Shown piece by piece: positions 39,623-62,847 of a stretch of 64,000 nt of DNA; positions within the stretch are counted from its first letter, which is position 1; each line of letters starts with the position of its first letter. Under the pieces are notes generated by a model that saw only the letters and a list, made by a program, of their open reading frames with translations, had not been told where the DNA came from and made no database searches. The position numbers were made by a program, and so were the translations under genes. Source of the stretch: an uncultured Methanosarcinaceae archaeon (lineage in GTDB: Archaea; Halobacteriota; Methanosarcinia; Methanosarcinales; Methanosarcinaceae); the NCBI GenBank assembly GCA_963733675.1, contig CAVTET010000007.1, forward strand, positions 1 to 64,000, given 5' to 3'.

Positions 39623-39828
39623 AGACACCGAGACTCCTATATTGTATATTTCTCATGAGAAATGCAAAAAATGGTGTCTAGGTGTCTTGTTTATATATAC
39701 AGTTATTGTTTTTGGCAAGACACCACTAGACACCACAATTTATAGCAATGTCTCTCAATATGGATTAAGCAAGACACCACTAGACACCAATACATGGTTT
39801 TCTTACGATTTGATCAAAGGTGGTGTCT
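39623..39828. repeat. Iteron cluster AGACACC x8 (candidate element origin)
   Basis: Copies at 39623, 39673 rc, 39681 rc, 39718, 39728, 39772, 39782, 39822 rc. Confidence 0.7.
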
Positions 39829-43453: not shown

Positions 43454-44074
43454 ATGAAATGTTGTTTACAAAAATGTGACGCAGCTTGTGGTGAATGTGC
43501 AGACAGAGTCCCTAGGGCAATGTTTATTGTATTTATAATAAAAAATTTAAATTATATTGCTGAAGATATTGGAAGTTTATTGCTTTCTGTTGGGCATTCC
43601 TTTTTTGAAAAAGGTTGTTCAGACCATGAGCTGAGAACTGTCATTAGTGAAAAAATAGACGATCTTGTTTCATCTGGTGCGTGCAAGTTTGGCACAAAAG
43701 AATTGCTCATAGCAAACTATGACATCTTTTACTTGGAAATGAGTCGTTGGAACACACAACCATCTAATCTAGATGGCGGTAATAATAACCTAAAGCATAG
43801 AATATGGCATACAACTTATCGAATTGATACGGACATCCTTAGAATGGAAGAGAGAATCAAATGGCATATCAACGCAATAGAATGCAGTAACAATGTTATA
43901 AATGCAATCGAAGCTTTATTAAAAGCATATCGACCTGACAAATCATGGGATGAAATTATAACCGATCCTTCAAATAGTGAATACATTGGTATTTGTCAAA
44001 ATCTTCACTACTCAATGGGTCTGTATCACGATGAAATTACGAACTTTCTTCTAACAGAATTACAAATTAACTAA
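43454..44074 (+). CDS. Hypothetical protein
   Basis: AGGAG RBS; 206 aa with Cys-rich N-terminus. Confidence 0.65.
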   Translation: MKCCLQKCDAACGECADRVPRAMFIVFIIKNLNYIAEDIGSLLLSVGHSFFEKGCSDHELRTVISEKIDDLVSSGACKFGTKELLIANYDIFYLEMSRWNTQPSNLDGGNNNLKHRIWHTTYRIDTDILRMEERIKWHINAIECSNNVINAIEALLKAYRPDKSWDEIITDPSNSEYIGICQNLHYSMGLYHDEITNFLLTELQIN

Positions 44075-44501
44075 TTTTTTCTTGATGTACATCTATTCTA
44101 CTCAAATAAGGCTTCAATCGCTTTACAAATGGTAATTTGTTTATTGCAGAGTAGTAGTGGGACAGAATTTTGCTTTTTTTGAAATCCCACAAAAAAGGCC
44201 CTTAACTTCGACTAGAAATCAATAAAGTAACCTAGGGAGAATAAAAGCGAAACTATCGATATTTCAAAAAATCCACTAACAATGAAGGATTAATTTTGTA
44301 GTGAATTACGAAAATACGGTAGCTATTGAATACCAATAACATATTGCCATATTAGGCTGGTAAAGTGGTACTGGAAGTTAATTGATCCGGCCTGACTTTG
44401 ACAGTAAAGACCGAATAAGCAAAAATAAATGACATTTAACAATATCGATCTTGTTTTACTTTACTTAATTAACTAAGGTGATCTGGATGATCTTGAATAT
44501 C

Positions 44502-44582
44502 AAAAAGGTGATCTTGTGAGCTGCGGGCGAAGGGGATGCCTACAGCTCGATCTAATGCCTACTTGATTATATGGGTTATCTA
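44502..44582 (-). ncRNA. Putative sRNA, copy 1
   Basis: GAGCUGUAGGC...GCCCGCAGCUC-ACAAGAUCACC-U5. Confidence 0.55.
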
Positions 44583-44867
44583 CTAATTATAATTAAATCT
44601 ACTTAATTATATATTTATATGAAAATATGTCCTAACTTAAACTAATTAGTATTAACATCACCTGTCCTAATCACGTGAATTATAAAATAGGGAAAGCCTT
44701 TTCATGCCCATCAATAACTGATTTCATCTAAGCCCCTCGAACCGGCTTATAATATATGAAAGGTAGAATAGATTCTACCCTACTCAAAAAATGCTTTAAA
44801 TCGTCCTAGAATCGATCTTCTTCAATTTTATTTAAGCAGTTTAGGCGACCAGGCTGATCTATAATAC

Positions 44868-44947
44868 AAAAAAAGTTGATCTTGTAAGCTGCAGGGGTGG
44901 TTACCTGCAGCCCGGTAGAGAATCTGTTCTAAGGTTTGAGAGCCTAT
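44868..44947 (-). ncRNA. Putative sRNA, copy 2
   Basis: GGGCUGCAGG...CCUGCAGCUU-ACAAGAUCAAC-U7; upstream BRE/TATA-like GCGAAAAATGTATGTA. Confidence 0.6.
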
Positions 44948-45312
44948 AAAATATAACTACATTTAAGTATACATACATTTTTCGCATATATTCTATATAA
45001 TGATAATTTAACTAAATAGTATTAGAAATATGTGGAATTATATCCCAAAATCGAAGCAAATGTCTTACTAAACTTAAATTATATAATTTCAATAATATAA
45101 AAATATATGGAAAAATATCTTGAAGGTACCTAGCGTGCAGAAGCATTCAAATTATGGGGTATTAGATTGGTCAAAAAGCGACTTAACCTGAGCTCACTAG
45201 TGAGACTTTTATAATAAGTTTGATGATTACCATTACCTTTTATAAAAAATGGCCCAGAACGCCTGAGAATGGCTCATCGTTGATCTGACGTAATTGGTTT
45301 AAGTAATGTGAT

Positions 45313-45438
45313 TTAAGACCATTTCACTAAGAGAAACAGAGTAAATATTCCTGCAAATATACCCACAAATACAACGCCAATCGTGACTTTAACTATAAAA
45401 TCTACTGATTGCTTCATCTTAATTTTGTCATCAAGCAT
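45313..45438 (-). CDS. 41 aa single-TM peptide (not in the ORF track)
   Basis: GGAAGTGG RBS; MLDDKIKMKQSVDFIVKVTIGVVFVGIFAGIFTLFLLVKWS. Confidence 0.6.
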   Translation of the reverse strand: MLDDKIKMKQSVDFIVKVTIGVVFVGIFAGIFTLFLLVKWS

Positions 45439-45502
45439 GTAAATAATAACCACTTCCTGGTCAAAAGTCATCAATTACTTCGTTTTTTATTGATTTAAAT
45501 GA

Positions 45503-45585
45503 TCAGGTTGATCTTGTGAGCTGCAGATGAAGAAACGCACAAGTCTGCAGCTCGATAGTAGGTATTGTTGCATGAAAGCACTGAC
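45503..45585 (-). ncRNA. Putative sRNA/leader, copy 3 (no U-tract)
   Basis: GAGCUGCAGA...UCUGCAGCUC-ACAAGAUCAAC-CUG. Confidence 0.5.
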
Positions 45586-45916
45586 ACAGTTGAGTTATAA
45601 ATAGATTTTATTGGTTATATATTGTTAAGAATATATTTTCCTAACTTAAACTAAGTAATACCACAATCATGTAGTCTTTATCTTTGGGCTGCTTAATGTC
45701 TTTGTATCTGCATGAATAGCAAACTTTTATGGGGATATAAACGTGAATATTTTGGATCTCTGGGTAAAAACGTTTGGTTCCGCCAAATAAGCCAAACTCT
45801 CTAAATAAATTTAAAAATACATCAATACTTATAGGTTGCAATTTATCTATATTGTACGGGTAATTTCTAAATATAAACCTGCATTAAATATAAAGAAGTA
45901 TATGGAGATATATAGT

Positions 45917-46054
45917 ATGATTCATTCAGATTCAAAAGTATTACCTATAATTAATAACGCTAACAATGCAGAAAAGATGGCTAAACCGGTGGCAGCTGAA
46001 TCGATCGTGAAAGCAGACTGTATAAAAACAGACTCTTCTACAAAGGCTGTTTAG
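45917..46054 (+). CDS. Conserved 45 aa small protein
   Basis: GGAG RBS; frame-preserving paralog at 62848-62985. Confidence 0.55.
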   Translation: MIHSDSKVLPIINNANNAEKMAKPVAAESIVKADCIKTDSSTKAV

Positions 46055-46490
46055 ATATAACATTAATCACTTTTTCTTTTGATAACCCTTTTTTTCGCAT
46101 ACTAGTTTAATACTTCATTGACATTTTGATCTTCACACTCTTACATAATAAATACGATATCTAATTATTTAGGAATAGCAGTTGTCATTTTTATTCCAGT
46201 ATTTACTTGATAAACCTGTGATGTTTAGAGAGTTTGATCTTTTTTAGATATATTCTCATTTCATGACTAAAACTAAGAACATTATGTAGTCATTATTTCA
46301 AAAAGTATACCAGTTGGGAATCTTCCTGATTATCAATAATTGACTGCATCTCAACCCCAACAGCATGTTTACAATTCCTGTAATAGGAGTTGAGTATCTA
46401 ATTCCTAAAAATGCCTAGATCGACCAATAATCGATCTTTGTATGCTTTATTTAAATGGTGTAGGTGAAACAGGGGCAAATCTGAAATGTC

Positions 46491-46572
46491 AAAAAAGTTG
46501 ATCTTGTGAACTGCAGGATGCCGGTTCCTACAGCCTATGAGTTGAGTGTAATTGAAGGTTTGAGAGAGTTTT
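46491..46572 (-). ncRNA. Putative sRNA, copy 4
   Basis: GGCUGUAGGA...UCCUGCAGUUC-ACAAGAUCAAC-U6; upstream ACAAAAACTATATAT. Confidence 0.6.
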
Positions 46573-47010
46573 GTAGTTATAATTATATTAGATTAGATAT
46601 ATATAGTTTTTGTATATATGGCAAATAGTATTCATGTGGACTAAATCGTACTAGATATATGTAAAACGTCATCTCTAAATCAAAACAACCACTTCCGGCA
46701 ACTTGGTTTATATATATTAAAAGTTATAAATATATATAGAAAATATCGTGAAGTCACTTACCGTGCAGTCAAATTTGGAACATGGGGAATTAAATTGGTC
46801 GAAAAGCGACTTAACCTGAGCTCACTAGTAAGACTTTTATTGTGAGTATTATGAACAACATTACCTTTGTAAAAAGACGTCTTAAAACGGCTGAGAATGG
46901 CTCACGTTGATCTAATGCGTATAAGCCCCGCTTCTATGCAAAACAAAACGAACTAAATATTAAAATACAAGACTAGCTGATATTTATTGTAAAGTAAAAA
47001 CGGTGATCAT

Positions 47011-47433
47011 ATGGTTCGTCCTTCAAAACTGACTCCTGATATACAAAAAAAAATCGGTGAAAATATTGCACTAGGGTTAACTTATAGATTGGCTGCCGAA
47101 TCGGCTGGTGTAACTTACAAAACGTTCAACGAATGGATGAACAGGGGCAAGACAGAGAAATCTGGAAAATATTATCTATTTTATAAGTACATTCAAAAGC
47201 GGAATGCTGATGCCGCAAAAGTCCTCCTGGAACGTTTAAACAAAGCAGCAGATGCTGGAAATTGTCAAGTTTGTATGTGGGTGCTCGAACGCCGTTTTAG
47301 TGACGACTTTGGAAGGCGGATCTATAGGAAAACAAATGTTATCTCAGAGAACATAAATGAAAATGTTGAACTAACGATCGAGGAAGGAGATCAAATAAGA
47401 AAACAAATTTTAGCGAAGTTTGATCGGAGTTAG
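47011..47433 (+). CDS. HTH protein resembling phage small-terminase-like proteins
   Basis: RPSKLTP...AAESAGVTYKTFNEWMNRG HTH; C-terminal WVLERRF.DDFGRR. Confidence 0.6.
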   Translation: MVRPSKLTPDIQKKIGENIALGLTYRLAAESAGVTYKTFNEWMNRGKTEKSGKYYLFYKYIQKRNADAAKVLLERLNKAADAGNCQVCMWVLERRFSDDFGRRIYRKTNVISENINENVELTIEEGDQIRKQILAKFDRS

Positions 47434-47542
47434 AAAAATCACCAGTTATTAGCTGATTAAGATTTTCTTATCTAAAACTGAGATGTTTTTAACAGAGAGT
47501 TATTCACTACTAATATAATCCTATGATCAATTGTAGCTGGAC

Positions 47543-48022
47543 TTACCAAAATCGCCACCATGGTTTACTTTTTTCTGCGGTCTCCGGAAGCAGCTTAATG
47601 TTTAGCCTGCTATTTTCTTGAATTACCGACTGCAAAGAAAACGCCTGTTTGTCTATCTGTTGATCCTTAATTGCTATTTGATTATCTTTTATCGCGATTT
47701 GCCCTTTCAAAAATTCCACTTGCGCCAATGCGTCAGAAAGTCTCGATTTCAATTCAATGGCGCCGTTGGTGTCATGGTTGTCACCATCGGCGTAATCGTT
47801 GGCGTCAACGTTGGCGTTACGGGCGTCTGTGCTTTTGTACGTGGTGCCACGGTTGGTGCCAGTGGTGCCGCTTGGCGCAATGGCGCCTTCCTTTATTTCT
47901 ACGAGAAGTTCTAAAGCTTCGTTTATAGCTTGCGCCGCACTGGCGTAATGCTGGCGTATCCTGGTGTCTAACTCTTTTGTTATTCTTGCTGACACACGTA
48001 TCCGGTCTTCTACTGGCGCCAT
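47543..48022 (-). CDS. RHH plus coiled-coil protein ending KPWWRFW
   Basis: RIRVSARIT strand-helix-helix, coiled coil, amphipathic tail. Confidence 0.75.
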   Translation of the reverse strand: MAPVEDRIRVSARITKELDTRIRQHYASAAQAINEALELLVEIKEGAIAPSGTTGTNRGTTYKSTDARNANVDANDYADGDNHDTNGAIELKSRLSDALAQVEFLKGQIAIKDNQIAIKDQQIDKQAFSLQSVIQENSRLNIKLLPETAEKSKPWWRFW

Positions 48023-48497
48023 AGTTGGATATATTTGGCGCCAGTTTTAAAAAGGTATCGTTTGTCATTAGTAAAGTAGCTTAGAAGATCGATATTGATC
48101 CACACGAGATATTTTTTATTTTCATAATGTATGCAATCATGTATTCAAACTGTAACAAATTATTTTTACAATATCAAAAGACTCTCTTAATCATATAAAT
48201 CAACGCTTGCCAAATTTAACAAACGCTGTTTTGGCGGTGGTGAGAGAATATAAAAAATGTAAATTGTCAGGATTATCTAAATAAAGATATAAATAAAAAA
48301 TATTTACTAGTTAACGATTGTTGGTCTTTAGTGCATTATTGTACAAAAAACTCATTGTAAGTGCGTATGAAATATAGGATTTTTTTTGATCATATAATAC
48401 AACACAGTATGTTTTAACAATAGATTATTATAAAAATAATTTTCTTGAATTCACTTAACTTAAAATCGATATTCAGTGGATGTATGACAGTTAACCT

Positions 48498-48813
48498 ATG
48501 TTTTTCTTACTATTTTTTTGCATTTACTGGGGGGTATAAATCGGTAGAATCTTGAATATTCCTGTAAACTATGGAATGATTGAGATTATAGACACATAGG
48601 TAAAAATTGGTAGTGTCGCGAATTTGCTGTAAATTCAAGGTTGGATTTCTGTTTACGGTTTTAAATTTTGTTCTTCGCACATAAACTTTTCTACCCAATG
48701 ACTTTTAGGTATTTCGATTTTACAGAAAAATCGGCACGCTTTAACAAAGTTAACAGGCAAGTAAAAGAGTCATGGACTAACCTATTGGAGTCAATAAAAC
48801 TGCACTTTGAAGC
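48498..48813 (-). repeat. Right terminal inverted repeat
   Basis: ...TGGAGTCAATAAAACTGCACTTTGAAGC. Confidence 0.92.
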
Positions 48814-49072
48814 TTTTTAAGCTTTTAAATAGACTCATATAGCTACCTGTATTGAAAGTCGTTTCCTCGCTTTTTTAACAACTAACTCAGAAGGAGGGAT
48901 AAGATCATCAGAGAAAATAGGTATCTATAACCAAGAGTAAAAATTTAAAATAACTACTTACATAATAGTATATTGTAGCATATACCAAATTGATCAAAAA
49001 AAGTAAGAAATATCGGCGGATTTGTACGATGAACCGAGAAATAAATATGAACGCAGAAAAGGAGATTGAGTA

Positions 49073-49562
49073 ATGGCAACTTTAACAGTTCTGAAGTTTG
49101 ACACCGCTGATGGTGCAGAAAATGAACTTGAAGTAATTGAAGATTTAAGTAAGCAACAAATGATAAAACTACACGATGCAGCTATAGTCACTTGGCCTGA
49201 GGGGAAAAATAAACCAAAAACAAAGCATTTGATCAATTTAACTCGCATAGGTGCACTGAGTAGCGCTTTTTGGGGGTTGTTATTTGGGATTCTCTTCTTT
49301 ATTCCTTTGGTTGGTATAGCCGCTGGGGCTGCGCTAGGTGCGGTAGTGGGTTCAATGAAACATGTGGGGATCGAATGAAGATTTCATAAAATCTATCCGC
49401 AGCAAGGTGACTGAAGGAACTTCAGCTCTCTTTCTTATGACTAGCGATGCCGTGGAAGATAGGGTAATAGAAGCTATGAAAAAATCCAAGTTTGAAATCA
49501 TTGCCACCAACATGTCAAAGGAAGAAGAAGAAAAGATGCGTGCAACCTTTGCAGAAGAATAA
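49073..49562 (+). pseudogene. DUF1269-like membrane protein, frameshifted
   Basis: DAAIVTW..., GALSSAFWGLLFG, then DFIKSIRSKV.EGTSALF in another frame. Confidence 0.8.
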
Positions 49563-49684
49563 AGTTCGCCAAAAAATTCAGTTTTACCAGGGAGTAAACT
49601 CTCTGGGAACTACTTTTGAAAATATACATTCTATGCACATCGTTTCACATAATTGCATTAAATGAGCTAAATTACTAATCGTGT

Positions 49685-49771
49685 GCGAGAGTAGCACAAT
49701 TAGTCGAACTACATCAGATTTAGAATCTAATTTTGTAGGAGTTCTGTGTTCAAATAGTACCTCTCGCACCA
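49685..49771 (+). tRNA. Degenerate tRNA-Leu(TAG), probable pseudogene
   Basis: GCGAGAG/CTCTCGC acceptor stem plus ACCA, TCAGA-TTTAGAA-TCTAA anticodon arm, long variable arm, GTTCAAAT; D and T stems disrupted. Confidence 0.7.
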
Positions 49772-49787
49772 AGTAGGAGTTGAGATT

Positions 49788-49937
49788 ATGGAAGAAACAA
49801 TCTGGTATCCTTCAGAATGGAAATGTAAATGCCCACACTGTGAAGCAACTAACACATGTTCTGTGCCTCAGAAAGATCTTGTGTGCACAGAATGTGGAAA
49901 AGCATTTGCAGTTTCTGTAGCGCATACAGAAGAGTAA
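49788..49937 (+). CDS. 49 aa zinc-ribbon protein (not in the ORF track)
   Basis: AGGAG RBS; CPHC...CTECG. Confidence 0.75.
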   Translation: MEETIWYPSEWKCKCPHCEATNTCSVPQKDLVCTECGKAFAVSVAHTEE

Positions 49938-50219
49938 TTAAGCCATATATCAGAGAAATCTAATTTGCTAGCAATAGGGCTTACACAGTTGAACTGAAAA
50001 ATCTATAGCATTAAACCACATTGTTTATTGTACTTAATTTTACATCTCAAATGTGTAGGGCCAAATAAGTATATTTCAACGACATGAAATTCCACTGCAA
50101 AAATGAAAATCTCATAATTTATGGTTGTGGTGCAAAAATAATATTTCTGCGGTTTGATACTATAATTTTTGCAACGGAACCATCAATCCTTCATAGAATT
50201 GCTGCTGAATTTGAATTGT

Positions 50220-50489
50220 TTAATCTTTTTCCCAGAATTCCTCAGCTTCTCTTTCCATCTTTTCCAGCCTGTCATAGTAATCCGGAAATTCATTCAGGTG
50301 CGCCAGAGCAATTTTTCCAATCATTAGAGGATCATCGTTTGTAACATTCGTTAAACTGTCCCTGGTGCCATGTTCAAGTTCCACGTCCATGCCACACCTG
50401 AACTGGTCAACATCGAATTTATCCCATTTCAGTCCCAGTTTTTCTCCAATTGCTTTTGCTTCTTCAGCCGTAAATACCAAAATTATCAA
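50220..50489 (-). CDS. Conserved small protein (DUF5661-like)
   Basis: GMDVELEHG...IALAHLNEFPDYYDRL. Confidence 0.75.
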   Translation of the reverse strand: MIILVFTAEEAKAIGEKLGLKWDKFDVDQFRCGMDVELEHGTRDSLTNVTNDDPLMIGKIALAHLNEFPDYYDRLEKMEREAEEFWEKD

Positions 50490-50635
50490 CTCAAATAACT
50501 AATAATACTTATTTTATAGATAAGGATACTCGCGCTAAAAATGAGTTGTATATATGGTCCAGTTGCAAAAATATTATTTATGCAATAACAGTATTAGTTG
50601 CTGTGTCTATAACTAAAACAATGTTATAAACAAAG

Positions 50636-51086
50636 TCAGCCACATATACTTTTTTTCCGTCTGCAGTTGCTGCAAATGCCAAATATGTTAAAATTCCATC
50701 CTCCAGCAGAAAAATCTACTTCATTTGATATCCGATCCACAATTTTAGAAATAAGGGGATATGTGCAGTCATTGATGCTTTTGCACTGGAGGCAAACCAA
50801 ATGCGTGTGTGGCTTCATATTGGGATCAAATCTGGCCTGATCTTTATCTAAATTCAATTTCTGGATCAAACCTGCCTCTTTCAAAATTTAGAACAGTTTT
50901 ATAAATTGTTGCAAGACTGACTGTTGGATAAACCTTCTTTACTTCACTATAAATTCCCTGAGCCGTTGGGTGGGCATGAGTGTGGAGAACAAATTGACCG
51001 ATCACTATTATCTGGGGCGTGGCCTTGTATCCTTTTTCGTGGAGAGCTTTGATTATGGATGAGTATGAGTCCTGAAGGCTATTCAT
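50636..51086 (-). pseudogene. Fur/PerR-family regulator, frameshifted
   Basis: HPTA..IY...VSLATIYK in one frame; HTHLVCLQC...GICSNC in another. Confidence 0.88.
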
Positions 51087-51523
51087 ATCCCATTATTATG
51101 TAATAATCAATATTAACTAGATATCCATGGTTATAGTAGTTGAATACTGAACTGGAATAAGTTCTTCAAGGATAGTAAAATATTAGTAATGATTAAAGGA
51201 GGAAATATAGATAAAATAGGAGTCATAAGATCTAAAGTAACAAACTTCCAGGATTGGAAAGTAAAATTCGACAAGAGGATGAAGATTTGAAAAAATAGCG
51301 AATGGGCTTTACATGAGCTGTATTATGATGAAGCCTATTAAGAGGCTTATGTCGTTCATATCTTAAAAGATGACAAATTGGACATGGCAAAACAGCATTT
51401 AAGAATTTCAAGCACGTGGGAAGCGAACCGAAATTAGGTCTTCTAGCAATCGGAACTCAATTCTTCCAAGAGGAGACAAGATTGAAGAGATTGCATACCA
51501 GAGATTTATTCTTGAATTTTTAG

Positions 51524-53737
<2,214 letters not shown>

Positions 53738-53765
53738 TCGTAGTATAAACGTCTTCAAGGGCTTG

Positions 53766-53969
53766 AAGATCTTCAAAACAAACGACTGTGCTCAGGCTGA
53801 AGAAAGGTATCGGTCGCTTGATAAGACAGGATAGGAACATATGATTGGCAACCTTGTGGCCGACCTGAGCCATGTCACCATTTTAGCTATTCAAAGATGT
53901 GCAATCGAAAACTTGCGGTAGGCTGATGAGACTTTGGCAACATATGCAGCAAAAGGGTTGAGCCTTTAG
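53766..53969 (+). pseudogene. 3' remnant of a monofunctional catalase
   Basis: NDCAQAEERYRSLDK.*EHMIGNLVADL...IQRCAIENLR*ADETL...AKGL resembles the KatE C-terminal domain. Confidence 0.65.
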
Positions 53970-54069
53970 ATGTTGAGTGGGGCCTGATAGACTTTACTGA
54001 TCTATGAAGAGACACAGATCATTCAAGTTCCTCTCGATTTATAAGTTTTGAATTAGAACTAGTGAGAGA

Positions 54070-54338
54070 ATGAAGAGCTTAAAGGGAACTAAGACCTAGA
54101 AGAATGTATTGCTGTCCTTCGCCGTAGAATCTCAGGCCAGGAATAGATAAAACTATTTTGAATTTCAGGCCAAAGAAGAAAGCCATGAGCAGATAGCAGC
54201 CAATTCCTGGACAGCAGACAATGAAAAAGAGCATGCTAAGATATTTTTCAAGCTTTTAGAAGGTGGAGAAGCGAAGATCACAGGTGCATTCCCTGCCAGA
54301 GTAATCGGGAACACCTTGGCAAATCTCAAAGCTGCTGG
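54070..54338 (+). pseudogene. Rubrerythrin 5' fragment
   Basis: MKSLKGTKT*KNVLLSFAVESQARNR*...TADNEKEHAKIFFK. Confidence 0.85.
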
Positions 54339-54474
54339 TGCCATGTTTTTACACTTCATTTTATTCCTCAAAGTAATAACACCCCCCACTCCCCAATATC
54401 AAAAAACCGATGCCTATTTACTTTTTTAACTTCTTTCTCTTTAACTAAGCTTTAAATGTGTACAGCCTATTTAT

Positions 54475-54501
54475 ACATAGGTTTTGTATCAAAATCTCTT
54501 T
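54475..54501. other. 27-bp 11-5-11 site
   Basis: ACATAGGTTTT-GTATC-AAAATCTCTTT. Confidence 0.5.
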
Positions 54502-54799
54502 ATTTCCTAAATTTCACAAGAAATAAAAAATATTGATTTAATTCTCATGGAACCCTTGGGACTCATAGAGCATAAACATATGAAGCGTTTTGTAGCTTAC
54601 ATCATAACTCAGACTAGCAAACATAAAAGCAAATTGAACTGAAAAAAACAGGATTATGAAACAACTTAGCGGATTGTTACAGATCCTAAATTTAAATTAA
54701 ATACTAATAATTTGACGTTAAAATACTTATCTGTATATATTATAAAATTTAACCGTTACTTTTTTTAAGTAGAAATAGTTTGAAAAATCAAATCCAAAA

Positions 54800-55190
54800 T
54801 TAAATGTCAAAAAACAAATTTTCGATATTAATAGATCCACTATAGACTGAAGTGGCACCCCCTCTATTGACATTTAAACATATAATTTTGTGCTGAAAAA
54901 AATCCAAATGGAAAGTTTTGATTTATAAAAAGTAAGAAGTCTCGTGTCATGTTTATGATTTACATATATAAATAATTTATTATTTTATCTAACATAATTG
55001 ATTTTTTACCTTCAATATTTTAATGTCAATTGGGGGGTGTATGCCAGCATTTCACTACTTAGCCGATATGGAATTAAATGTCAATCTGGCAAAAAATAGC
55101 TTTAATTTCTTAACATTTGGATTAAACGTCATAAATGTCTATAGTTGTCTCACAAAAATAGACATAATCTTACATACCTCAAATGACATT
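54800..55190. other. Candidate replication origin (G-string inverted repeats flanking an AT-rich core)
   Basis: CACCCCCTCTATTGACATTTAAA (54856) and TTTAATGTCAATTGGGGGGTG (55019) plus extra AAATGTC copies; upstream of cdc6. Confidence 0.6.
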
Positions 55191-55193
55191 TAA

Positions 55194-56453
55194 TTGATCA
55201 TGCAATCTGAAGACATAGTGACAGATCTTGATGATTTCTTTGGAGAAAACAATAATACAATAGTAAAAGATGCTCAAGCATTATCTTTAGATTACGTTCC
55301 TGAACAAATAGTTGGGCGGAGAGCCGAGATAACAGAACTTGTAAAAATCTTTAAACCAATAGAGTTTAAAGGATATCCTTCTAATGCGACAATATTTGGT
55401 AATTCTGGATATGGAAAGACTGTAGTTGCCAAGTTTGTTCTCCAAAAGCTTATGGAGCGTGTAGAGAAGAAAAAATTATTGAATCACACACTAAAATGGG
55501 TCTATATTCAGTGCAAAAAACATAAAACGGAGATAAAAGTCCTGTTTGAAACAATAACTCAATTAGATTCTAAAACAAAAGTGCCTAAAACTGGCTTGTC
55601 TCCAGGTGAATATTACGATGCTTTATGGGATCTAATCAAAGAGCAGAATATCTCTCTTATTGTAGTTCTCGATGAAATTGATAAATTGAAAAGTGGTGAT
55701 CTTTTATATAATTTAAGTCGTGCTGGTGAATCTCATCAACTTCCAGAACGTCATTTTCTAACTACGATAGGCATTTCAAACGATTTTGAATTTGGTAAGT
55801 ATCTTGACACTAGAACAAAATCATCAATGAATTTCAAAGATGTGGTTTTCTCGGCATATAATGCAGAACAGATAAAAATGATTCTTTTTGACCGTGTTAA
55901 AATTGCATTTAATCCGGGGGCAGTCTCCAACGAGACAATTGAGTTATGTGCTGCAATTTCAGCTAAGGCTCACGGAGATGCTCGCAAAGCTATCGATCTT
56001 TTAAGGGCAGCTGCTATCTATGCTGAAGAGAATGGATATGAGCAGGTACTTCCAGAACATATTGACAAGGCTTTTGAAGAACTGGATGGAGATAGAATGA
56101 TAAAATTTATTCCAAAACTTGCTTTGCATGATAAACTTGTCCTATTATCAATTGTGAAAACAACTAACTATAATAAACAAATTACAAATGTTAGACAAGT
56201 TACTGCAATGTATAATAAACTTTGTGATGAGATTCAAGAAAAAAGGAAAGGGAGAACAACTGTTTCAACTAAGATAGGAGAATTACTCACGATGAGCTAT
56301 ATTAAAGTTCTTTCTGTTAGAAAGGGACGTGGAGAAGGAGGACGAGAGGTAGAATTAAATGTTTCTTCGCGACGTGTTTTAGAAGATGTGTTGTATGAGG
56401 ATTATAACCTGGGAGACTTAAGAGATTTTAATCCAACGATGTTTTCCAATTAA
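55194..56453 (+). CDS. cdc6: Orc1/Cdc6 replication initiator
   Basis: DYVPE.IVGR, GNSGYGKT, VLDEID, GDARKAIDLL, C-terminal wHTH. Confidence 0.93.
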   Translation: MIMQSEDIVTDLDDFFGENNNTIVKDAQALSLDYVPEQIVGRRAEITELVKIFKPIEFKGYPSNATIFGNSGYGKTVVAKFVLQKLMERVEKKKLLNHTLKWVYIQCKKHKTEIKVLFETITQLDSKTKVPKTGLSPGEYYDALWDLIKEQNISLIVVLDEIDKLKSGDLLYNLSRAGESHQLPERHFLTTIGISNDFEFGKYLDTRTKSSMNFKDVVFSAYNAEQIKMILFDRVKIAFNPGAVSNETIELCAAISAKAHGDARKAIDLLRAAAIYAEENGYEQVLPEHIDKAFEELDGDRMIKFIPKLALHDKLVLLSIVKTTNYNKQITNVRQVTAMYNKLCDEIQEKRKGRTTVSTKIGELLTMSYIKVLSVRKGRGEGGREVELNVSSRRVLEDVLYEDYNLGDLRDFNPTMFSN

Positions 56454-56992
56454 TTCTTTTTGTAATCCATAAACGCACATGTTTTAAAGTGAAACATCTA
56501 TATTTTTTAATCTAGTGATAGCCTGCATACGATTCATTACTTAGTTCTAATGTCTTATGTTGATTAAGGATCCAGAAGTCCAACATTTTTTTAGAATGTA
56601 TATCTTAGACTATTTAGTTAGTATAATAAATACATATAAAAAATACTAAAAATATATATTCTTTGGTGTTCATTTAATATCTTAGGACCCATAAATGCAC
56701 TATGGCATAGATCTCAAAATAAAATGTCTTAGCGTGATTATGTGTCTAAAATGAAAAAGCATCAAGTAGCTCTTCGATGTATAGTGTATCTTACCCACAA
56801 CTTATAAAACTATTTTTTATCTATCTTTGAATATACGATATCAGTGGGATGCATGGTGTCTCAAGGATCATAGATGACAGTAAGCTTTTCTGGTAAATAA
56901 TTATTTTTTCTGGTAAATAATTATTATTTCTAAAATATTATATCTAATTTTAATAGGTCCTAGCCTTTTAACTTCCATAGACTCAAAACAGA

Positions 56993-57264
56993 AATAGGGC
57001 AATATCGATTAGTACAAAGAATATCGTTATTGCCCTGGAGATTCGGCGCCCAATTACTTAAAATTATCCATGGAGTTAACATGTATCAACATGAAATTAA
57101 CAACAATAAATTATTGTTTGTGCAGTTGGTGGGATGATCGATCCGATACTTTTAAGCTCATTTTCCCTAACAGTTTAACTTGTTCTGTTAATAGACTGAG
57201 TACTGCTCAATGGTATTGTGTTACATTGATCAAAAGCACATGTTTTACATTAAAACCTATGCAT
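56993..57264. repeat. ~250 bp dispersed repeat, copy 2
   Basis: Starts with an AGGGCAATA...TATTGCCCT hairpin and ends in the 11-5-11 site GCACATGTTTT-ACATT-AAAACCTATGC. Confidence 0.85.
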
Positions 57265-57274
57265 ATTGTCAACA

Positions 57275-57722
57275 TCACCCATAAATGTTAGTTTTTATTT
57301 GAAGATCTCTGTTGTTATTTATATTGTATATGTTTTTGATATTCTGTTCTACAACATTACGGCATGGTGAACAACATGGGCATTCACAGCAAGACTTGGA
57401 GGGCGTTATTGTTGCACTAGTATTGGGTGAAAATACTGGTTTGTAATTGTATGAACCTGTTGCATTCGCTAAATTGGTCACTGAACCATTATTAAAATCC
57501 GACTGTTTTATTGTGTAGGTAGCTGTTCCTGTAACACTGCTACCAGGTACAAGATCAGCGCTGGTTATATTGAATGTTCCAGTTATGTTGTCTGCAACAG
57601 TAATAGGTGCGGTGATATTCACATTTCCTGTGTTTGTTACATTATAAGTGTATTCGATAACCTGCCAGACAGCATTATAAGTTGATGGATATGCTGATTT
57701 TACTATTGTCAGAGCTGCAGCA
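57275..57722 (-). pseudogene. 5'-truncated surface protein with conserved Ig-like repeat (DUF11/DUF7507-like)
   Basis: LTIVKSA...YTYNVTNTGNV...LVPG....TATYTI.Q.D..NG.VTN.A.A.G; no start codon. Confidence 0.75.
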
Positions 57723-57941
57723 TGGATGATTTTCTGTAAAATCGTAAATCTCTATATTTGGAGTATTTTTTTTCTTCTCGTTTATTATGTTTTGATTTTA
57801 AATATGGCTTCTGCTATCCTTAAAATATTTCATTTATTTTTAATATCATCACTAACTAGCATTGATATTAATAAAATCTATGCATTTTCCGTTAAATAAG
57901 TGTAAAAAATGCTCTAGAATGTTGACTGAAACTGGAAAAAC

Positions 57942-57968
57942 GCACAGGTTTTGATACAAAAACTGTGC
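57942..57968. other. 27-bp palindromic 11-5-11 site
   Basis: GCACAGGTTTT-GATAC-AAAAACTGTGC. Confidence 0.6.
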
Positions 57969-58076
57969 ATCAGTTAAAATTAAAAAGAATACGATAAACC
58001 CCTAAATATTATGACAATATTTAAAACTATTACGAAGCAGTTAATATATAAATAGAAATAAGTAGACAGTGTTGAT

Positions 58077-58619
58077 ATGGCTGAACGGCAAGTAGAAAGT
58101 GTGGTTATCGAAATCCCAAAAGGAAGTCGGAACAAATACGAGTATGATAAAAAACAGAAAGTCATTAAATTTAACAGAATGCTTTATTCTTCAATGGTAT
58201 ATCCCTGTGATTATGGGTTTTTTCCCGATACTATAGCACTTGATGGTGATCCCTTAGATGCCCTTGTTTTAACATGGGAACCTACATTTCCAGGATGTGT
58301 AATAGATGTATACCCTATCGCATTGTTTGATATGGAAGATGATAAGGGAATAGATGAAAAGATACTCTGTGTTCCAAAGAGTGATCCATTGTGGAATTAT
58401 ATAGAAACAATTGAACAGGTTCCTCCTCACCTATTAAAGGAAATCACTCACTTTTTTGAAACTTATAAGAATTTAGAGAACAAACACGTGATAATTATTG
58501 GTTGGGAAGGTCTCAAAACAGCAGCCAATATACTCCAAGAAGCTAAATCTCGATATATTGAACAAAATGAAATTGCGGATGGTCACCTTACCCTTAACAA
58601 GCTGTCTGACAATTACTAG
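58077..58619 (+). CDS. ppa: Inorganic pyrophosphatase (family I)
   Basis: EIPKGSRNKYE, YGF.P, DGDPLD, DEKI, FFETYK. Confidence 0.95.
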   Translation: MAERQVESVVIEIPKGSRNKYEYDKKQKVIKFNRMLYSSMVYPCDYGFFPDTIALDGDPLDALVLTWEPTFPGCVIDVYPIALFDMEDDKGIDEKILCVPKSDPLWNYIETIEQVPPHLLKEITHFFETYKNLENKHVIIIGWEGLKTAANILQEAKSRYIEQNEIADGHLTLNKLSDNY

Positions 58620-58819
58620 CAATAATAAATATTAATCATCTATCAATTAGCTCGTTTTTATTAGTAAATCCATATTTCCATAAAGCATCAATGAAATGCG
58701 GAACAAAAAAACCGAAAAATGACTATACTTTTATTTTTGAAACAAAACCAACTAAATAATAGAGGACTATCCATGCTTGCATAAATTATTTATTTAATAT
58801 TGGTAAACTTCTCCCTGAA

Positions 58820-58879
58820 AGATGATGAAGTCCACCTAGATCTTTAAATCTAAACCGCTTATGCTAATGACTTCTACAC
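58820..58879 (+). ncRNA. Fluoride (crcB) riboswitch
   Basis: GATGATGAAGTCCACC...AAACCGC...GCTAATGACTTCTAC directly upstream of crcB. Confidence 0.85.
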
Positions 58880-58898
58880 AATCATCGAGGCTTTTGAC

Positions 58899-59297
58899 TT
58901 GTACATACTTCTATTAGTAGGCATAGGCGGTTTCATAGGCTCTATCTTGAGATATACTTTAAGTGGATGGGTACAGAGTAATCTTGTTAATTTCCCGGTT
59001 GGTACTTTGGCTGTAAATGTTAGTGGCAGCTTCCTTTTGGGGTTAATAATGTACCTTTCTGAGTATCAAGAACTCTTTGGCGAAGAAACCAGGATATTTC
59101 TGACAATTGGATTAATCGGTGGCTATACAACATTATCAACATTTAGTTATGAGTCATTCAGATTATTAGACGATTCAAAACTAACACTAATGGCAATAAA
59201 TTTGATGGCCACAGTATTATTTTCCATGTTTGCAGTGTATTTAGGGAAAATTGTGGCTTTGAACTTTTACACGTATCTGCTAAGGGGAATTAGATGA
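58899..59297 (+). CDS. crcB: Fluoride channel CrcB/Fluc
   Basis: GGFIGSILRY, GTLAVN, GLIGGYTTLSTF. Confidence 0.95.
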   Translation: MYILLLVGIGGFIGSILRYTLSGWVQSNLVNFPVGTLAVNVSGSFLLGLIMYLSEYQELFGEETRIFLTIGLIGGYTTLSTFSYESFRLLDDSKLTLMAINLMATVLFSMFAVYLGKIVALNFYTYLLRGIR

Positions 59298-59680
59298 AAA
59301 AAGAATCTCAGGCTATATTATTGAGAATATTCATTGGAGAGTCTGATAGGTATAACGGCAAATCGATGTATATACATATACTTGAGATGCTCAAAAATGA
59401 AGGAATCGCAGGGGCAACTGTCTTTAGAGGCATTGCTGGTTTTGGAAAACACAGCCGTTTTCATACAACATTTATATTGCAGTTATCCACTGACCTGCCA
59501 ATACTTATCGAAATAGCTGATCTCGAAGAAAAAATTGATAAGATCAAACCAAAATTGGACGAAATAATTACCCAAGGGTTGATCACAGAAAAAAAATTAA
59601 AATTGTATTTTATGACTACAACAAAGAGAAATGAAATCTTCGTTACAATATCCTTACGCAGTGAACTGGGAAATCAATAA
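59294..59680 (+). CDS. DUF190 family protein (C-terminus probably frameshifted)
   Basis: LRIFIGESD, GIAGATVFRGIAGFG, LSTDLPILIE. Confidence 0.88.
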   Translation: MKKESQAILLRIFIGESDRYNGKSMYIHILEMLKNEGIAGATVFRGIAGFGKHSRFHTTFILQLSTDLPILIEIADLEEKIDKIKPKLDEIITQGLITEKKLKLYFMTTTKRNEIFVTISLRSELGNQ

Positions 59681-59907
59681 CATCAAACCTTCAATTGTCT
59701 AAGAAATGATTTTAACCACACTATCTAAAGTACTTGATTTTATACTTCACGTGCTTAAATTATAATGAAATTGGCGATTAGACCCGAAGGAACCTTTGCT
59801 GATGTCAGTGTATTAAAATGTATACAGTATATCTAAAGTTCTGTAAATTCCGATAGATATTATCCCCTTTCTTTACAACAAAAAGAAGATTTATCGTTTT
59901 TATTGAT

Positions 59908-59934
59908 GTGGAAGTTTTCATACAAAACCTATCA
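59908..59934. other. 27-bp 11-5-11 site
   Basis: GTGGAAGTTTT-CATAC-AAAACCTATCA. Confidence 0.4.
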
Positions 59935-60041
59935 TCTCGGGATTAAGGGAATTCAAACCTTTGGACCAAAGCTATACTGCTGTTCAATAATTTTATCATG
60001 AAATCAAAGCACTTATAGCACTCATGACAGGCTATGAATTT

Positions 60042-60228
60042 TCACTGTCCCTTCGTTGCTCTGTCTCCTGCCTTATCCGCTTCTTTCTGACAAACATAAG
60101 CTCCGCTCTTGGTGTTCCCGTACCAATGTTGACCTTTGTAATGATAGATGCCTGTCGGAAGATTAAGCCACACAACAGTATCTGTTGGACAATGCCGTTT
60201 TTGTCTGCTTGAATGTTGGGTTTTTCAT
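60042..60228 (-). pseudogene. Fragment of a small conserved protein (bacterial-type family)
   Basis: HCPTDTVVWLNLPTGIYHYKGQHWYGNTKSGAYVCQKEADKAGDRATKGQ, out of frame with the ATG. Confidence 0.6.
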
Positions 60229-60512
60229 TTATTTAGACTCCAAAATTTTCTTATACATACAGTTAGAAATATATTTGATAATTAAAAAATTTTGGCGTAA
60301 TAAATAGTTTTAATTTGTTAGGCTGTAGTTGTAATATTTTTAACTTAGTAAGTTAAAGAGTGCTTTACTTTTAACCCTACTGCATAGTCAACTTCATGTA
60401 AAATTCACTACCCATTACCTTCATTCGCTAGAATGACCTGTTTTATTACAATAATGTATATTAGGTCTCAATAAATACAACAATTGGAAACAAATGGAAA
60501 TGTTTTTTAATT

Positions 60513-60986
60513 ATGTTTCCAAATTACCATAATATGCCGGAAACAAAGAGAAAAATTTGCGTATGGGTTTCTACTGATATGTATAACAGTGTAGTAAAAG
60601 CAGGTTATGATAGTCCTACAGTTGCCGTAATAAAAGGTTTTGAATTATTACTAGGAGAAGCGGAATGCCGGCAAAATGCCGGCAATTTGGAACAAGCTGC
60701 CGCACAAATTACGGCGGATAATCATAATTTAAAAAATGAAGTTCAGAGACTTACTTTAGCGCTTCAAGACACACCAGATCCTAGTGAACTTGCACAACTA
60801 AAAGCTAGGTATGAAGAGTTAAAAAAGCATAACGAAACTTTAAAAGCAGAGCTTGAGAGTACACGCCAGAGAGAGCAAGATCTTAAAAAGACGTTTGATA
60901 ATTATATGGTTCAAGTTCAAACCCTAATCAATCAAAAAGCAGTTGAAGCACCGGGATCTAAGAAACCATGGTGGCGTTTTTGGTAA
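60513..60986 (+). CDS. RHH plus coiled-coil protein ending KPWWRFW (paralog of 47543-48022)
   Basis: Same architecture and tail. Confidence 0.75.
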   Translation: MFPNYHNMPETKRKICVWVSTDMYNSVVKAGYDSPTVAVIKGFELLLGEAECRQNAGNLEQAAAQITADNHNLKNEVQRLTLALQDTPDPSELAQLKARYEELKKHNETLKAELESTRQREQDLKKTFDNYMVQVQTLINQKAVEAPGSKKPWWRFW

Positions 60987-61069
60987 GTTCAACTACAATA
61001 ATACAAACTGATAAAAATTGATAATAACTTAGTTTATATTAAAAATAAATTAAGTTAGAGTGAAAAATA

Positions 61070-61428
61070 TTAAATAGTTTGATACTTTTGATTTTCGTTA
61101 CCCAAATTAAACTTTTCTAGAATTTGTGCCCTAATGCCATCTGCATAATTGATTGCTATATCAACAATCACATTCTGATTCTCTGAAACCAGATTTGTTT
61201 TCTTAGTTCCAAAAGAACTTTTGCAGCCTCAGCATTACATTTTTGAATGTATTTATAGAACTGATAATACTTTCCTGATATCTCTGTCTTCCCCTTGTTC
61301 ATCCAGTCATTGAATGTCTTATAGATTATGCCGGCTGATTCAGCAGCAAGAGCATATGTCAATCCAAGAGACACACCATCGCCAATTCATTTGGTTACAT
61401 CAGACGTCATTTTGGTTGGTCTAGACAT
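61070..61428 (-). pseudogene. Decayed paralog of the TerS-like HTH gene at 47011
   Basis: MSRPTKMT..., LGLTYALAAESAGIIYKTFNDWMNKGK; frameshift and internal deletion. Confidence 0.8.
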
Positions 61429-61871
61429 GGTCGCACCGTTTTTTATTTATTGTAATTAATATTAGTGAATTTTGTATTTAATATTTAGTTAGTTTTGTTC
61501 TGAATGAAGGCGGGATTGCTACCAGCTAAATCAAAATAGAGCCACTCTCAGACGCTGTGAGCCAGTTTATTGACTAAGGCAATGGGTAAAAACATTAGAC
61601 TCTTCACAAAAGCCTTACTAGTAGCCCCAGAATAAGTCATTTTCCGACCAAATTAATTCCTCATGATTTAACTATCATTGCACGGTAAGTACCTTCACGA
61701 TATTTTTCCATATAGTTTTATAACATTATAATAATAAAAATTATGTTAACTAAGATATTTGCTTAGATTTTTAGCTAGAATTTCACTTCTATTCTATACT
61801 ATTTAGTTATAACTAATACTATTTAATATATATGCAAAAACTATATATTGGGTCAAATATAACTGTAAGTA

Positions 61872-61954
61872 TAGGATTCTCTCAAACCTTCAATTAAAAC
61901 CTACTCATGGACTGCAGGTAGCAACACCCTGCAGTTCACAAGATCAACTTTTTT
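61872..61954 (+). ncRNA. Putative sRNA, copy 5
   Basis: Promoter GCAAAAACTATATAT; GGACUGCAGG...CCUGCAGUUC-ACAAGAUCAAC-U6. Confidence 0.6.
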
Positions 61955-62204
61955 GACATTTTAGATTAGCCTGATCGCCTAAAGGGATTAAGTAAAAGAA
62001 CTTTCATTTCGGAATTTGAGCACATAATTGATCAATGTTAGCTCTTTGTGTTATATACTCTGCAAAAGTTTGCTGCTGATATTTGTGCAAAGATATTAAG
62101 TAGCACAAAAATCAGGATTACATAACTTATTAAAATTAGTTTAAGTTAGTACTATTTAGACTATATGCAAAAGAGATATAACAAATCAAACAGAATTGTA
62201 AAGT

Positions 62205-62281
62205 ATAGGTTTCCCCACCTTCTAATAGATTTTCCATTGGGCTGTAGGTATTCCCCCGCAGCTCATAATATCCACCTTTTT
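62205..62281 (+). ncRNA. Putative sRNA, copy 6
   Basis: Promoter GCAAAAGAGATATA; GGGCUGUAGG...CCCGCAGCUC-AUAAUAUCCACC-U5. Confidence 0.55.
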
Positions 62282-62847
62282 GATATTTTAGGTTAACCTG
62301 ATCACCTGAGCTAATAAAAATTTCTGTTTAAGATCAATATTTTTGCTCATGTTCGCCCTATTTAACTATATTAATTTCTAGTTGAAGTAAAGGGCCATTT
62401 TTTCTTGTAAAATTTAAAGAAGAACAAGGTTCTGTCCGACTTATTACCTTACAATAAACGGATTATCATTTGTTGAATGATTTAAGCCTTTTTAAGCACA
62501 ATGGGTAACCACCAGAGATAAATTAAAACAGAATGTGGAGACTGAGATTGAGTCATTTATTGATTATCGTGAAGACTCCCGGCTGTTGTAATTCTCGAGA
62601 TAATGACTGCATAATGTTCTGACTCTTTAGTTTTAGTCGTGAAATAAGAATAGATGTGAAAATATCCAACTGTCCAAACATCACAAGTTTATTAAGTGAA
62701 TACTGGAATAAAAATGACAACTGCTCTTCCTCAATAATTAGATATTGTATTTATTATGTAAGAGTATGAAGATCAAAATGTCAATGAAGTATTATGCTAG
62801 TATGTGAAAAAAGGGTTATCAAAAGAAAAAAGTAATTAATACTATAT

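Follow-up and report, generated by a model that had tools for sequence, protein, structure and literature searches.

A clade-specific, interspersed family of structured, putative small-RNA units in Methanosarcinaceae archaea

The Methanosarcina mazei small RNAs sRNA41 and sRNA154 are reported to mask ribosome-binding sites (PMC5867862), and the Sulfolobus solfataricus RNAs RNA-257(1-4) are described as transposon-derived paralogues linked to the 3′ untranslated region (UTR) of a phosphate-transporter mRNA (PMC3674436). Here we describe a family of units that resembles both in part. It occurs in six copies in a stretch of 64,000 nucleotides (nt) from an uncultured Methanosarcinaceae archaeon (assembly GCA_963733675.1, contig CAVTET010000007.1, positions 1 to 64,000; hereafter the window), where a preliminary description, made from the letters of the DNA, had presented them as genes for putative ~80-nt small RNAs (sRNAs). 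We favour, at somewhat better than even confidence, the reading that this is a clade-specific, interspersed birth-and-death family of autonomous small-RNA transcription units, carried in self-contained modules of ~300 nt. The family is real, well structured and absent from Rfam: the comparison that the preliminary description had proposed gave no match at gathering score for the window copies, and none at E values up to 5 for eight copies, with sRNA41, sRNA154, sRNA162 and repeats of the CRISPR type (short palindromic repeats that are clustered and regularly interspaced) among the models.

The family shares with sRNA41 and sRNA154 the genus, an intergenic location, a predicted promoter of its own, a terminal U-tract and exposed pyrimidine-rich stretches. 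It has no similarity to them in sequence or model, and whereas they are single-copy and conserved, it comprises ~55 decaying copies in one clade. With RNA-257(1-4) it has in common that they are archaeal paralogous small RNAs spread with repeated DNA, and in other species the family module lies 3′ of a phosphate-binding-protein gene. The Sulfolobus RNAs, however, are antisense to the 3′ UTR of their target whereas the family module is sense, no transposon parent was found for it, and ~55 copies stand against four.

Repetitive extragenic palindromic (REP) sequences, bacterial interspersed mosaic elements (BIMEs) and transposable elements of the miniature inverted-repeat type (MITEs) such as the Correia elements are interspersed bacterial repeats that may supply promoters or terminators and are often transcribed. 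The family is likewise short, multi-copy, intergenic, hairpin-bearing and clade-specific. Unlike with these repeats, neither inverted repeats at its ends nor duplicated target sites were found; its units each combine a U-tract with a complete archaeal promoter, oriented one way, and are arrayed head to tail. Its layout, a variable part beside a conserved hairpin part with units in a row, also recalls CRISPR RNAs (crRNAs) and solitary repeat units. In contrast to these, its period is 330-450 nt, each unit has a promoter, the variable part is structured and common to whole subfamilies, no repeat family matches it, and the clustered neighbouring open reading frames (ORFs) include no cas gene. Literature searches on Methanosarcina small RNAs, mobile promoters and intergenic repeats or MITEs turned up no such family; the supplementary sRNA tables for M. 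mazei, which may list relatives, lay outside that survey.

Copy number, distribution and anatomy of the units

All six copies were confirmed at the positions first given for them, and a covariance-model scan of the window returned precisely these six. The family is nevertheless larger than the six copies originally counted. A strict regular expression found 12 copies in the genome and a looser, stem-only pattern four more (C4:275133, C4:377151, C5:182453 and C13:18120), 16 in all; an nhmmer profile built from 15 of the 16, the remaining one having been taken on the wrong strand, and used at E < 1e-6, then gave 58 matches spread over 10 of the 15 contigs of the 3.9-Mb genome. These amount to 52 distinct sequences, with identical duplicates on contigs C2 and C13. 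Since the copies are so dispersed, and many lie beside ordinary genes, the idea that all of them sit inside one element did not survive. Two covariance models were used, R1 (48 copies, two helices) and R2 (hairpin and tail alone), which gave 56 and 60 matches, respectively, in this genome (G000).

Family copies were found in 23 of 59 species genomes of the genus, the other 36 being without any match. Six genomes carry high numbers (G000 56, G019 53, G055 26, G064 40, G066 45 and G067 57; single-genome searches reproduce the counts for G064 and G067), and 17 species have 1-4 matches each. The models found no copy in genomes G013, G047 and G048, and 16 genomes from five other families of the order gave no match to the family model. 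The orthologous regions of the six high-copy genomes are 85-95% identical; being close kin, these genomes count as one evolutionary event.

Each unit is a module of ~300 nt made up of an upstream box, a promoter consisting of a transcription factor B recognition element (BRE) and a TATA box, a predicted transcribed part of ~80 nt and a GATCAG/CTGATC palindrome. About half of the copies begin with a block GGGGCTGAGATTAAGTCATTTATTGA ... TTATAATTCATGAGATCAGGACCACGTAATGTTAATA, and nearly all have the upstream box CTAATTAGTTTAAGTTAGTAC (conserved form TTAGTTTAAGTTAG). Archaeal promoters follow a spacing rule between promoter and start; here an A-rich BRE stretch and TATATA are followed ~25 nt downstream by AUAGG. 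The A-rich stretch and TATA-like box are aligned in nearly all of the 49 distinct full-length copies, and they occur at the same aligned place in all six window copies, where the preliminary description had seen them in most. A 5′ hairpin of the form AGGN.../...NCCU comes next (examples are AGGUAUU-CCAG-UACCUU, AGGUGC-UCAA-GCACCU and AGGU-UUCCCC-ACCU), joined by the linker gUAGAcuUUCC to the main hairpin, H2, with its CUGYAG/CYGCAG stem. H2 has 9-10 base pairs, a stem GGCUGCAGG/CCUGCAGCU that is conserved in sequence and a variable, pyrimidine-rich loop. It is followed by an 11-nt conserved tail, ACAAGAUCAAC, and by U5-7.

The tail motif ACAAGATCAMC is exact in five of the six window copies, the 62.2-kb copy having AUAAUAUCCACC; with at most one mismatch it matches nine times in the window, against a shuffle mean of 2.9, and none of 100 shuffles reaches nine. 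The U5-7 end is likewise present in five of the six, as had been noted, the 45.5-kb copy being without it. Across the genome a T-run of at least five is kept in 40 of the 52 distinct copies, and of at least four in 44. Beyond the U-tract lies GAYAUYUAAGAUCAGCCUGAUCACCUAAGCUAAUUAAAU, which carries the palindrome, and a subgroup of copies adds AAGAUCGAUUnnGGnnCGAUYU AAGGCAUUUUU, a second hairpin with a T-run. When copies are compared in pairs, their similarity climbs from about -150 onwards and drops sharply between +125 and +175. Conservation extends from about -170 to +165, well past the ~80 nt of the preliminary description.

The segment earlier called a variable 5′ region differs only between subfamilies; inside each subfamily it is conserved and folds as a hairpin, ACCU pairing with AGGU. 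Subfamily segments include CUCUCAAACCUU, UUUCCCCACCUU, GGUAUUCCAGUACC and caacugugucagugc, among others. The ACCUU reported in four of the 5′ regions is indeed there; in the 5′ hairpin, ACCU makes up the 3′ arm. Arrays of units repeat one subfamily order (C4:377087/377514/377862, C3:324860/325185/325543 and, in the window, 61842/62175), and for 11 of the 52 distinct copies the next unit on the same strand is no more than 800 nt downstream.

Folding, transcription and possible targets

When the six window copies are folded singly, the CUGYAG hairpin is the minimum-free-energy fold of each, with z-scores of -1.6 to -3.6. RNAalifold on a MAFFT alignment recovered only six H2 pairs, because the loops were misaligned. 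With the structure as stated above (5 + 10 pairs) laid on the MAFFT alignment of 48 copies, 82.9% of cells are paired and both-side changes occur in 13 of 15 pairs; none of 500 shuffles reaches the covariation score, though this control inflates significance among related sequences, and if the partners are displaced by 1-3 columns, only 31-49% of cells are paired. A model-fitted alignment of 133 copies from 15 genomes, which is biased towards the structure, gives 86.5% paired cells, again with both-side changes in 13 of 15 pairs and no shuffle of 500 reaching the score. G-U cells outnumber A-C cells by 160 to 59 in H2 and by 44 to 28 in the 5′ hairpin, which argues that it is this strand that folds, as RNA or as single-stranded DNA. 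The earlier statement that stem changes are wobble or compensatory only was therefore too strict: the excess of G-U stands, but A-C mismatches exist, as in the 44.5- and 62.2-kb copies, the latter having one G-U and one A-C in its CUGUAG/CCGCAG stem. Selection on the helices is well supported, as is the gene-like character of the units.

Are the units transcribed? The preliminary description had called them individually transcribed, and each copy does look like a transcription unit of its own, with a promoter, covarying helices and an oligo-U end; transcription into ~80-nt RNAs is predicted and likely. One peat metatranscriptome run (Logan contigs) contained 9% of the sampled words, and its contigs cover much of the region from 44 to 63 kb. 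They include paralogous family members; one hairpin-bearing contig has a depth of 115, and a contig of 682 nt spans copy 3 (numbered as in Table 1) and its ORF. As evidence these contigs are weak: they also include promoter sequence and give no ends, strand or level, stretches that they leave uncovered carry no information, and carry-over of DNA may account for them.

What lies downstream of the units bears on another explanation, that the unit is a cis-acting cassette, a portable promoter and structured 5′ leader whose premature U-tract terminator would act as an attenuator tuning a downstream ORF, copies without an ORF being relics. This we consider unlikely. A same-strand ORF of at least 50 residues starts at +100 to +450 in 13 of the 52 distinct copies. 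One and the same 53-codon ORF stands at +142 to +160 after copy 3 and copies C1_389996, C3_391864 and C7_87027, four units in all; its product, hydrophobic in the C-terminal half, could be a small membrane protein or toxin-like peptide; C3_325543 is followed at +167 by one of 69 codons. The G000 copies C3_286429, 321341, 337417 and 375938 have one downstream leader in common, with the U-tract broken in C3_321341 and C3_337417, and in three of them it leads into ORFs of 126-238 amino acids (pentapeptide-repeat or of no assigned family; pentapeptide-repeat genes at two). Loci L047, L048, L049, L060, L169 and L170 of other species have the promoter, the 5′ hairpin and H2, but where the U-tract would be expected they continue into a long conserved leader, the one that also follows the four G000 copies. 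Yet 39 of the 52 copies have no such ORF, most keep the T-run, the tandem arrays set unit upon unit with no ORF between, and the downstream ORFs are mutually unrelated.

Other species also show the hairpin and tail on their own. In four low-copy genomes (loci L046, L050, L053 and L056) a conserved solute-binding gene of the PBP_like_2 (PstS-type) kind is followed, within ~70 nt of its stop codon, by hairpin, tail and T-run, which lack a separate promoter. This arrangement speaks for a rival explanation, in which the hairpin, tail and U-tract are simply a generic terminator or 3′-end hairpin that has been copied around, the supposed sRNA being a by-product of a nearby promoter. Three results make this very unlikely. 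In five complete genomes from other species, searches with R2 gave only 5, 2, 4, 0 and 0 matches, so that the hairpin-tail module does not act there as a generic terminator throughout the genome; of the 58 nhmmer matches in G000, 55 start in the first 11 profile positions and thus include promoter and 5′ hairpin, the 60 R2 matches being largely the same set; and in the 11 nt that separate hairpin and U-tract the sequence itself is conserved, although a plain terminator would not require this. Further forms were seen at locus L052 (promoter, 5′ hairpin, H2 and tail, then unrelated sequence) and in genomes G044, G004, G001 and G016, where a long form of ~170 nt from a similar promoter starts GGAGGUAUCAAGUGAUCGAUUC. 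The long form appears non-coding, since its indels are not multiples of three, and tandem repeats sometimes follow it in place of the U-tract (17 nt x 6.2 at L163 1408-1512 in G044; 19 nt x 5 at L168 1570-1664 in G004). An Rfam search at E values up to 1 with eight loci of other species gave no match. Because hairpin and tail are present in such varied contexts, we take them to be a portable RNA module, of which the ~80-nt unit of the high-copy clade would be a shortened and multiplied derivative.

The layout of a variable 5′ part before a hairpin handle had also suggested guide-like RNAs, either crRNA-like solitary units or the RNA of a transposon-encoded nuclease, with a 5′ guide and an effector-bound 3′ handle. 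We regard this as extremely improbable. The 5′ parts fall into a few subfamilies and form a covarying hairpin of their own, and a blastn-short search with them against the host genome outside the family loci gave 2940 antisense and 3072 sense matches with similar length distributions. The Rfam searches of the window family, CRISPR-repeat models included, found no relative, and a k-mer scan of the 92%-complete assembly for the proposed link with host CRISPR returned tandem repeats only and no array. No effector-like gene recurs among the ORFs within 2.5 kb of the copies, and their clustering gave no cas-like cluster, though no search was aimed at cas families.

In 133 copies the H2 loops are 4-20 nt long, most commonly 10, with 37% C, 36% U, 21% A and 6% G (73% pyrimidine); 76 of the 133 have no G. 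The suggested anti-Shine-Dalgarno pairing remains a weak lead, the loops being pyrimidine-rich but with few CCUCC-type words (CCTC in 9 of 133, CTCC in 4 of 133) and the 5′ ACCU being paired. A copy of sRNA41 itself (RF02905, full length) lies in the window and has two UCACCUG-type words, similar to the loop and the 3′ arm that the family's commonest hairpin has. The idea that the units mimic the 3′ end of 16S rRNA was considered and dropped: to the eye, CCUGAUCACCUAAGCUAAU after the U-tract and the hairpin with its tail look like helix 45, the tail and the first spacer bases of the genome's own 16S gene, but a local alignment of the family consensus with this region scores 17, which 56% of 3000 random genome windows equal or exceed.

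On the favoured reading of autonomous units, archaeal RNA polymerase would start near AUAGG and stop at the U-tract, yielding the ~80-nt RNA, and some transcripts would read on to the second hairpin and its U-tract or into a downstream ORF. The invariant H2 stem and tail may then serve as a portable 3′ module, a handle for 3′-end formation, stability or protein binding. Purine-rich sites, ribosome-binding sites for example, could be paired by the 5′ hairpins and by the G-poor loops rich in C and U, both of which differ between subfamilies, in the manner reported for M. mazei sRNA41 and sRNA154 (PMC5867862). Modules would be copied as DNA, through duplication and recombination and in part along with a gene module described below, and single copies would decay afterwards, so that most copies are probably dispensable.

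Turnover, mobility and the TerS-like gene

Comparison of orthologues among the high-copy species points to a family in flux. Five of the six species have the copy adjoining the seryl-tRNA synthetase gene in one and the same position. The copy adjoining DnaJ is kept in G055, G064 and G019, and in G066 unrelated sequence stands in place of 648 nt. The spacers upstream of a phosphoglucomutase-family gene and at C1:779 kb differ between species, with break points in common. Other copies are truncated: C4_274780 and C4_168332 begin inside H2, in its loop or 3′ arm, and C5_273309 begins at the tail. The orthologue comparison and the truncated copies together indicate that the family turns over by duplication, recombination and decay, and since the predicted transcript does not include the promoter, it must be as DNA that copies are made.

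Several observations weigh against a family of functioning sRNA genes, besides the inflated shuffle control and the ambiguity of the metatranscriptome contigs. The copy adjoining the seryl-tRNA synthetase gene is ~0.8 identical to that of G000, like the surrounding spacer, the neighbouring gene being 0.93-0.97 identical, and its stem has suffered damage in G067 and, by AA in place of GC, in G000 and G055. The G000 copy adjoining DnaJ has lost 23 nt (the end of the 3′ arm, the tail and the U-tract) between two AAGATCA repeats. Since orthologues match the divergence of the spacer and carry disruptive changes, most copies are seemingly without constraint. To these may be added the even balance of sense and antisense matches, the rarity of anti-Shine-Dalgarno words in the H2 loops, and the conservation that goes on beyond the U-tract and on the upstream side of the promoter, more than an RNA of 80 nt can by itself account for.

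Conservation past the U-tract also speaks for another reading, in which the unit works as DNA, with hairpin, GATCA direct repeats and GATCAG/CTGATC palindrome serving as sites in double- or single-stranded form (hairpins for recombination or transposition of the REP, palindrome-associated transposable element or attC type, or sites bound by the TerS-like or another DNA-binding protein) and transcription being incidental. The stem is conserved in sequence and not in pairing alone, and the loop varies in length; the truncated copies start within the hairpin, from its loop onwards, or at the tail; and deletions occur between GATCA repeats, of which the junction in copy 3 may be a further case, this copy being without both the U-tract and the block that follows it, with AAGATCAAC joined straight to CTGATCA. 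The TerS-like gene described below stands at a fixed distance of ~405 nt from copies. G-T wobble is tolerated in folded single-stranded DNA too. The genome also holds 70 matches to the Y1 transposase family (PF01797), mostly fragments with stops. We nonetheless judge a DNA-level element improbable. Most copies have kept both promoter and oligo-T at the proper spacing, and no recurrent terminal inverted repeats were found at the unit ends. At the three loci where a relative lacks the copy (phosphoglucomutase-family gene, DnaJ and C1:779 kb) there is neither a clean empty site nor a target-site duplication, the spacer having been replaced each time by unrelated sequence; one of them has a TGAAAG repeat at both junctions, yet no empty site. 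Y1 matches are not enriched near the copies (2 of the 58 have one no more than 1 kb away, where 500 random placements predict 2.1), and the resident IS200-like elements have no similar hairpin. Parentage in the IS200/IS605 group was accordingly rejected, the IS200-like copies of the genome (four of ~590 bp, ~95% identical to one another) containing neither a family match nor a CTGYAG hairpin and the family copies showing no excess of Y1 matches nearby.

The neighbours of the copies include genes for seryl-tRNA synthetase, DnaJ, a phosphoglucomutase-family protein, CstA fragments, IS240-type transposases and pentapeptide-repeat proteins. Clustering of the 313 ORFs within 2.5 kb yielded three recurrent families: a 140-residue protein resembling terminase small subunits (TerS-like; 10 ORFs), an IS240-type transposase (8) and a 159-residue coiled-coil protein (8). 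IS240-type (IS6 family) genes lie on the opposite strand 450-560 nt downstream of copies C4_275067 and C7_68187 (C4:275627-276331 and C7:67092-67736; six more are in the genome). In the window this position, after copy 1, is taken by a 206-residue ORF without an assigned family, for which tblastn finds no match in the rest of the genome.

The TerS-like gene is itself a repeat, its unit consisting of the gene and ~300 nt upstream and nothing more, many copies having stops. By tblastn this genome has 43 matches, some loci being split in two, and ten of these are divergent from a family copy that lies at a distance of 361-499 nt; two of the ten pairs are in the window and three are duplicated C2/C13 sequence. 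The six high-copy genomes have 42, 47, 12, 29, 29 and 52 matches, compared with 0-3 in 53 other species of the genus. The claim that the RNAs are carried by an element therefore holds in part, for the ten matches of this repeated module, but the copies at large are not confined to it. A second arrangement touches the same point. The UvrD-type helicase gene of the window, followed by a 440-residue gene without family, recurs at C2:3928-6335 and C13:86-2076 at 33-39% identity, each time with a family copy ~360 nt downstream, and this pair is probably the "element" of the preliminary description.

The parallel expansion allows a bolder proposal, that the units are the RNA arm of an undescribed selfish system, in which TerS-like gene and ~80-nt RNAs were multiplied together to 40-55 copies each and the RNAs act in trans, either as a sponge for a host factor that would bind the hairpin-tail module, with which a phosphate-uptake mRNA ends in other species, or by masking ribosome-binding sites through the C/U-rich loops. 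We hold it to be distinctly unlikely; if true, a mobile repeat would have given rise to an archaeal sRNA regulon that is large and evolves fast.

For the favoured reading, a birth-and-death family of autonomous units, the interest lies elsewhere. Promoter-bearing, multi-copy small-RNA repeats have hardly been described in archaea. If they are transcribed, dozens of structured, mutually related RNAs are made in this clade, from tandem arrays as well as dispersed sites, and it would offer a natural system for the birth, spread and death of archaeal sRNA genes and for the role of a hairpin-tail 3′ module in termination, stability or protein binding. If they are not, the family is an ordinary interspersed repeat, though an unusually well-structured one. 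Its co-expansion with the TerS-like gene points to an unrecognised proliferation of repeats in a peat-associated methanogen lineage.

Features of the window

Table 1. Coordinates of the family copies and of other features in the 64,000-nt window
Feature	Position (strand)	Parts and remarks	Score
Copy 1	44489..44624 (-)	Promoter; 5′ segment; H2 44518-44548; tail ACAAGAUCACC 44507-44517; U5 44502-44506	83.8 bits
Copy 2	44856..44988 (-)	Promoter; CUCAAACCUU 5′ hairpin region; H2 44886-44913; tail 44875-44885; U7; downstream a GATCAG/CTGGTC block, then second hairpin and T-run	82.6 bits
Copy 3	45492..45632 (-)	Promoter; long 5′ segment; H2 45518-45553 (20-nt loop); tail 45507-45517	53 bits
Copy 4	46478..46614 (-)	Promoter; CUCUCAAACCUU 5′ segment; H2 46508-46536; tail 46497-46507; U6; TerS-like gene 408 nt away, divergent	63.6 bits
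Copy 5	61831..61967 (+)	Promoter; CUCUCAAACCUU 5′ segment; H2 61909-61937; tail 61938-61948; U6; TerS-like fragment 414 nt away, divergent	79.6 bits
Copy 6	62164..62294 (+)	Promoter; UUUCCCCACCUU 5′ hairpin; H2 62239-62264; tail AUAAUAUCCACC; U5	79.8 bits
53-codon ORF	45313..45474 (-)	Directly after copy 3; hydrophobic C-terminal half; no Pfam family	
TerS-like gene	47011..47433 (+)	Helix-turn-helix protein, 140 residues; phrog_4102, terminase small subunit	E 6e-22
TerS-like gene fragment	61204..61428 (-)	Residues 1-75, one stop; the "relic" of the preliminary description, beside copies 5 and 6	
Coiled-coil protein gene	47543..48022 (-)	159 residues; convergent with TerS-like gene; one of the 8-ORF cluster; no family assigned	
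Coiled-coil paralogue	60513-60986 (+)		
UvrD-type helicase gene and 440-residue gene	39820-42704 (+)		
206-residue ORF	43454-44074	After copy 1	
Peroxidase-family gene	51527-53737 (+)	736 residues	
Cdc6/Orc1-type gene	55194-56453 (+)		
Fluoride riboswitch	58812-58883 (+)	RF01734	36.3 bits
Two small ORFs	58899-59297, 59294-59680	Directly downstream of the riboswitch	
sRNA41	8785-8900 (-)	RF02905	58.9 bits

The peroxidase-family and Cdc6/Orc1-type genes lie between the two groups of family copies, and the fluoride riboswitch stands directly upstream of its two small ORFs. Finally, the related genomes hold other repeats of ~450-500 nt, exemplified by L144:340-790 (C12:248640-249090) and L061:604-1117 (C1:485408-485921), with 25-41 matches per genome at 66-82% identity.

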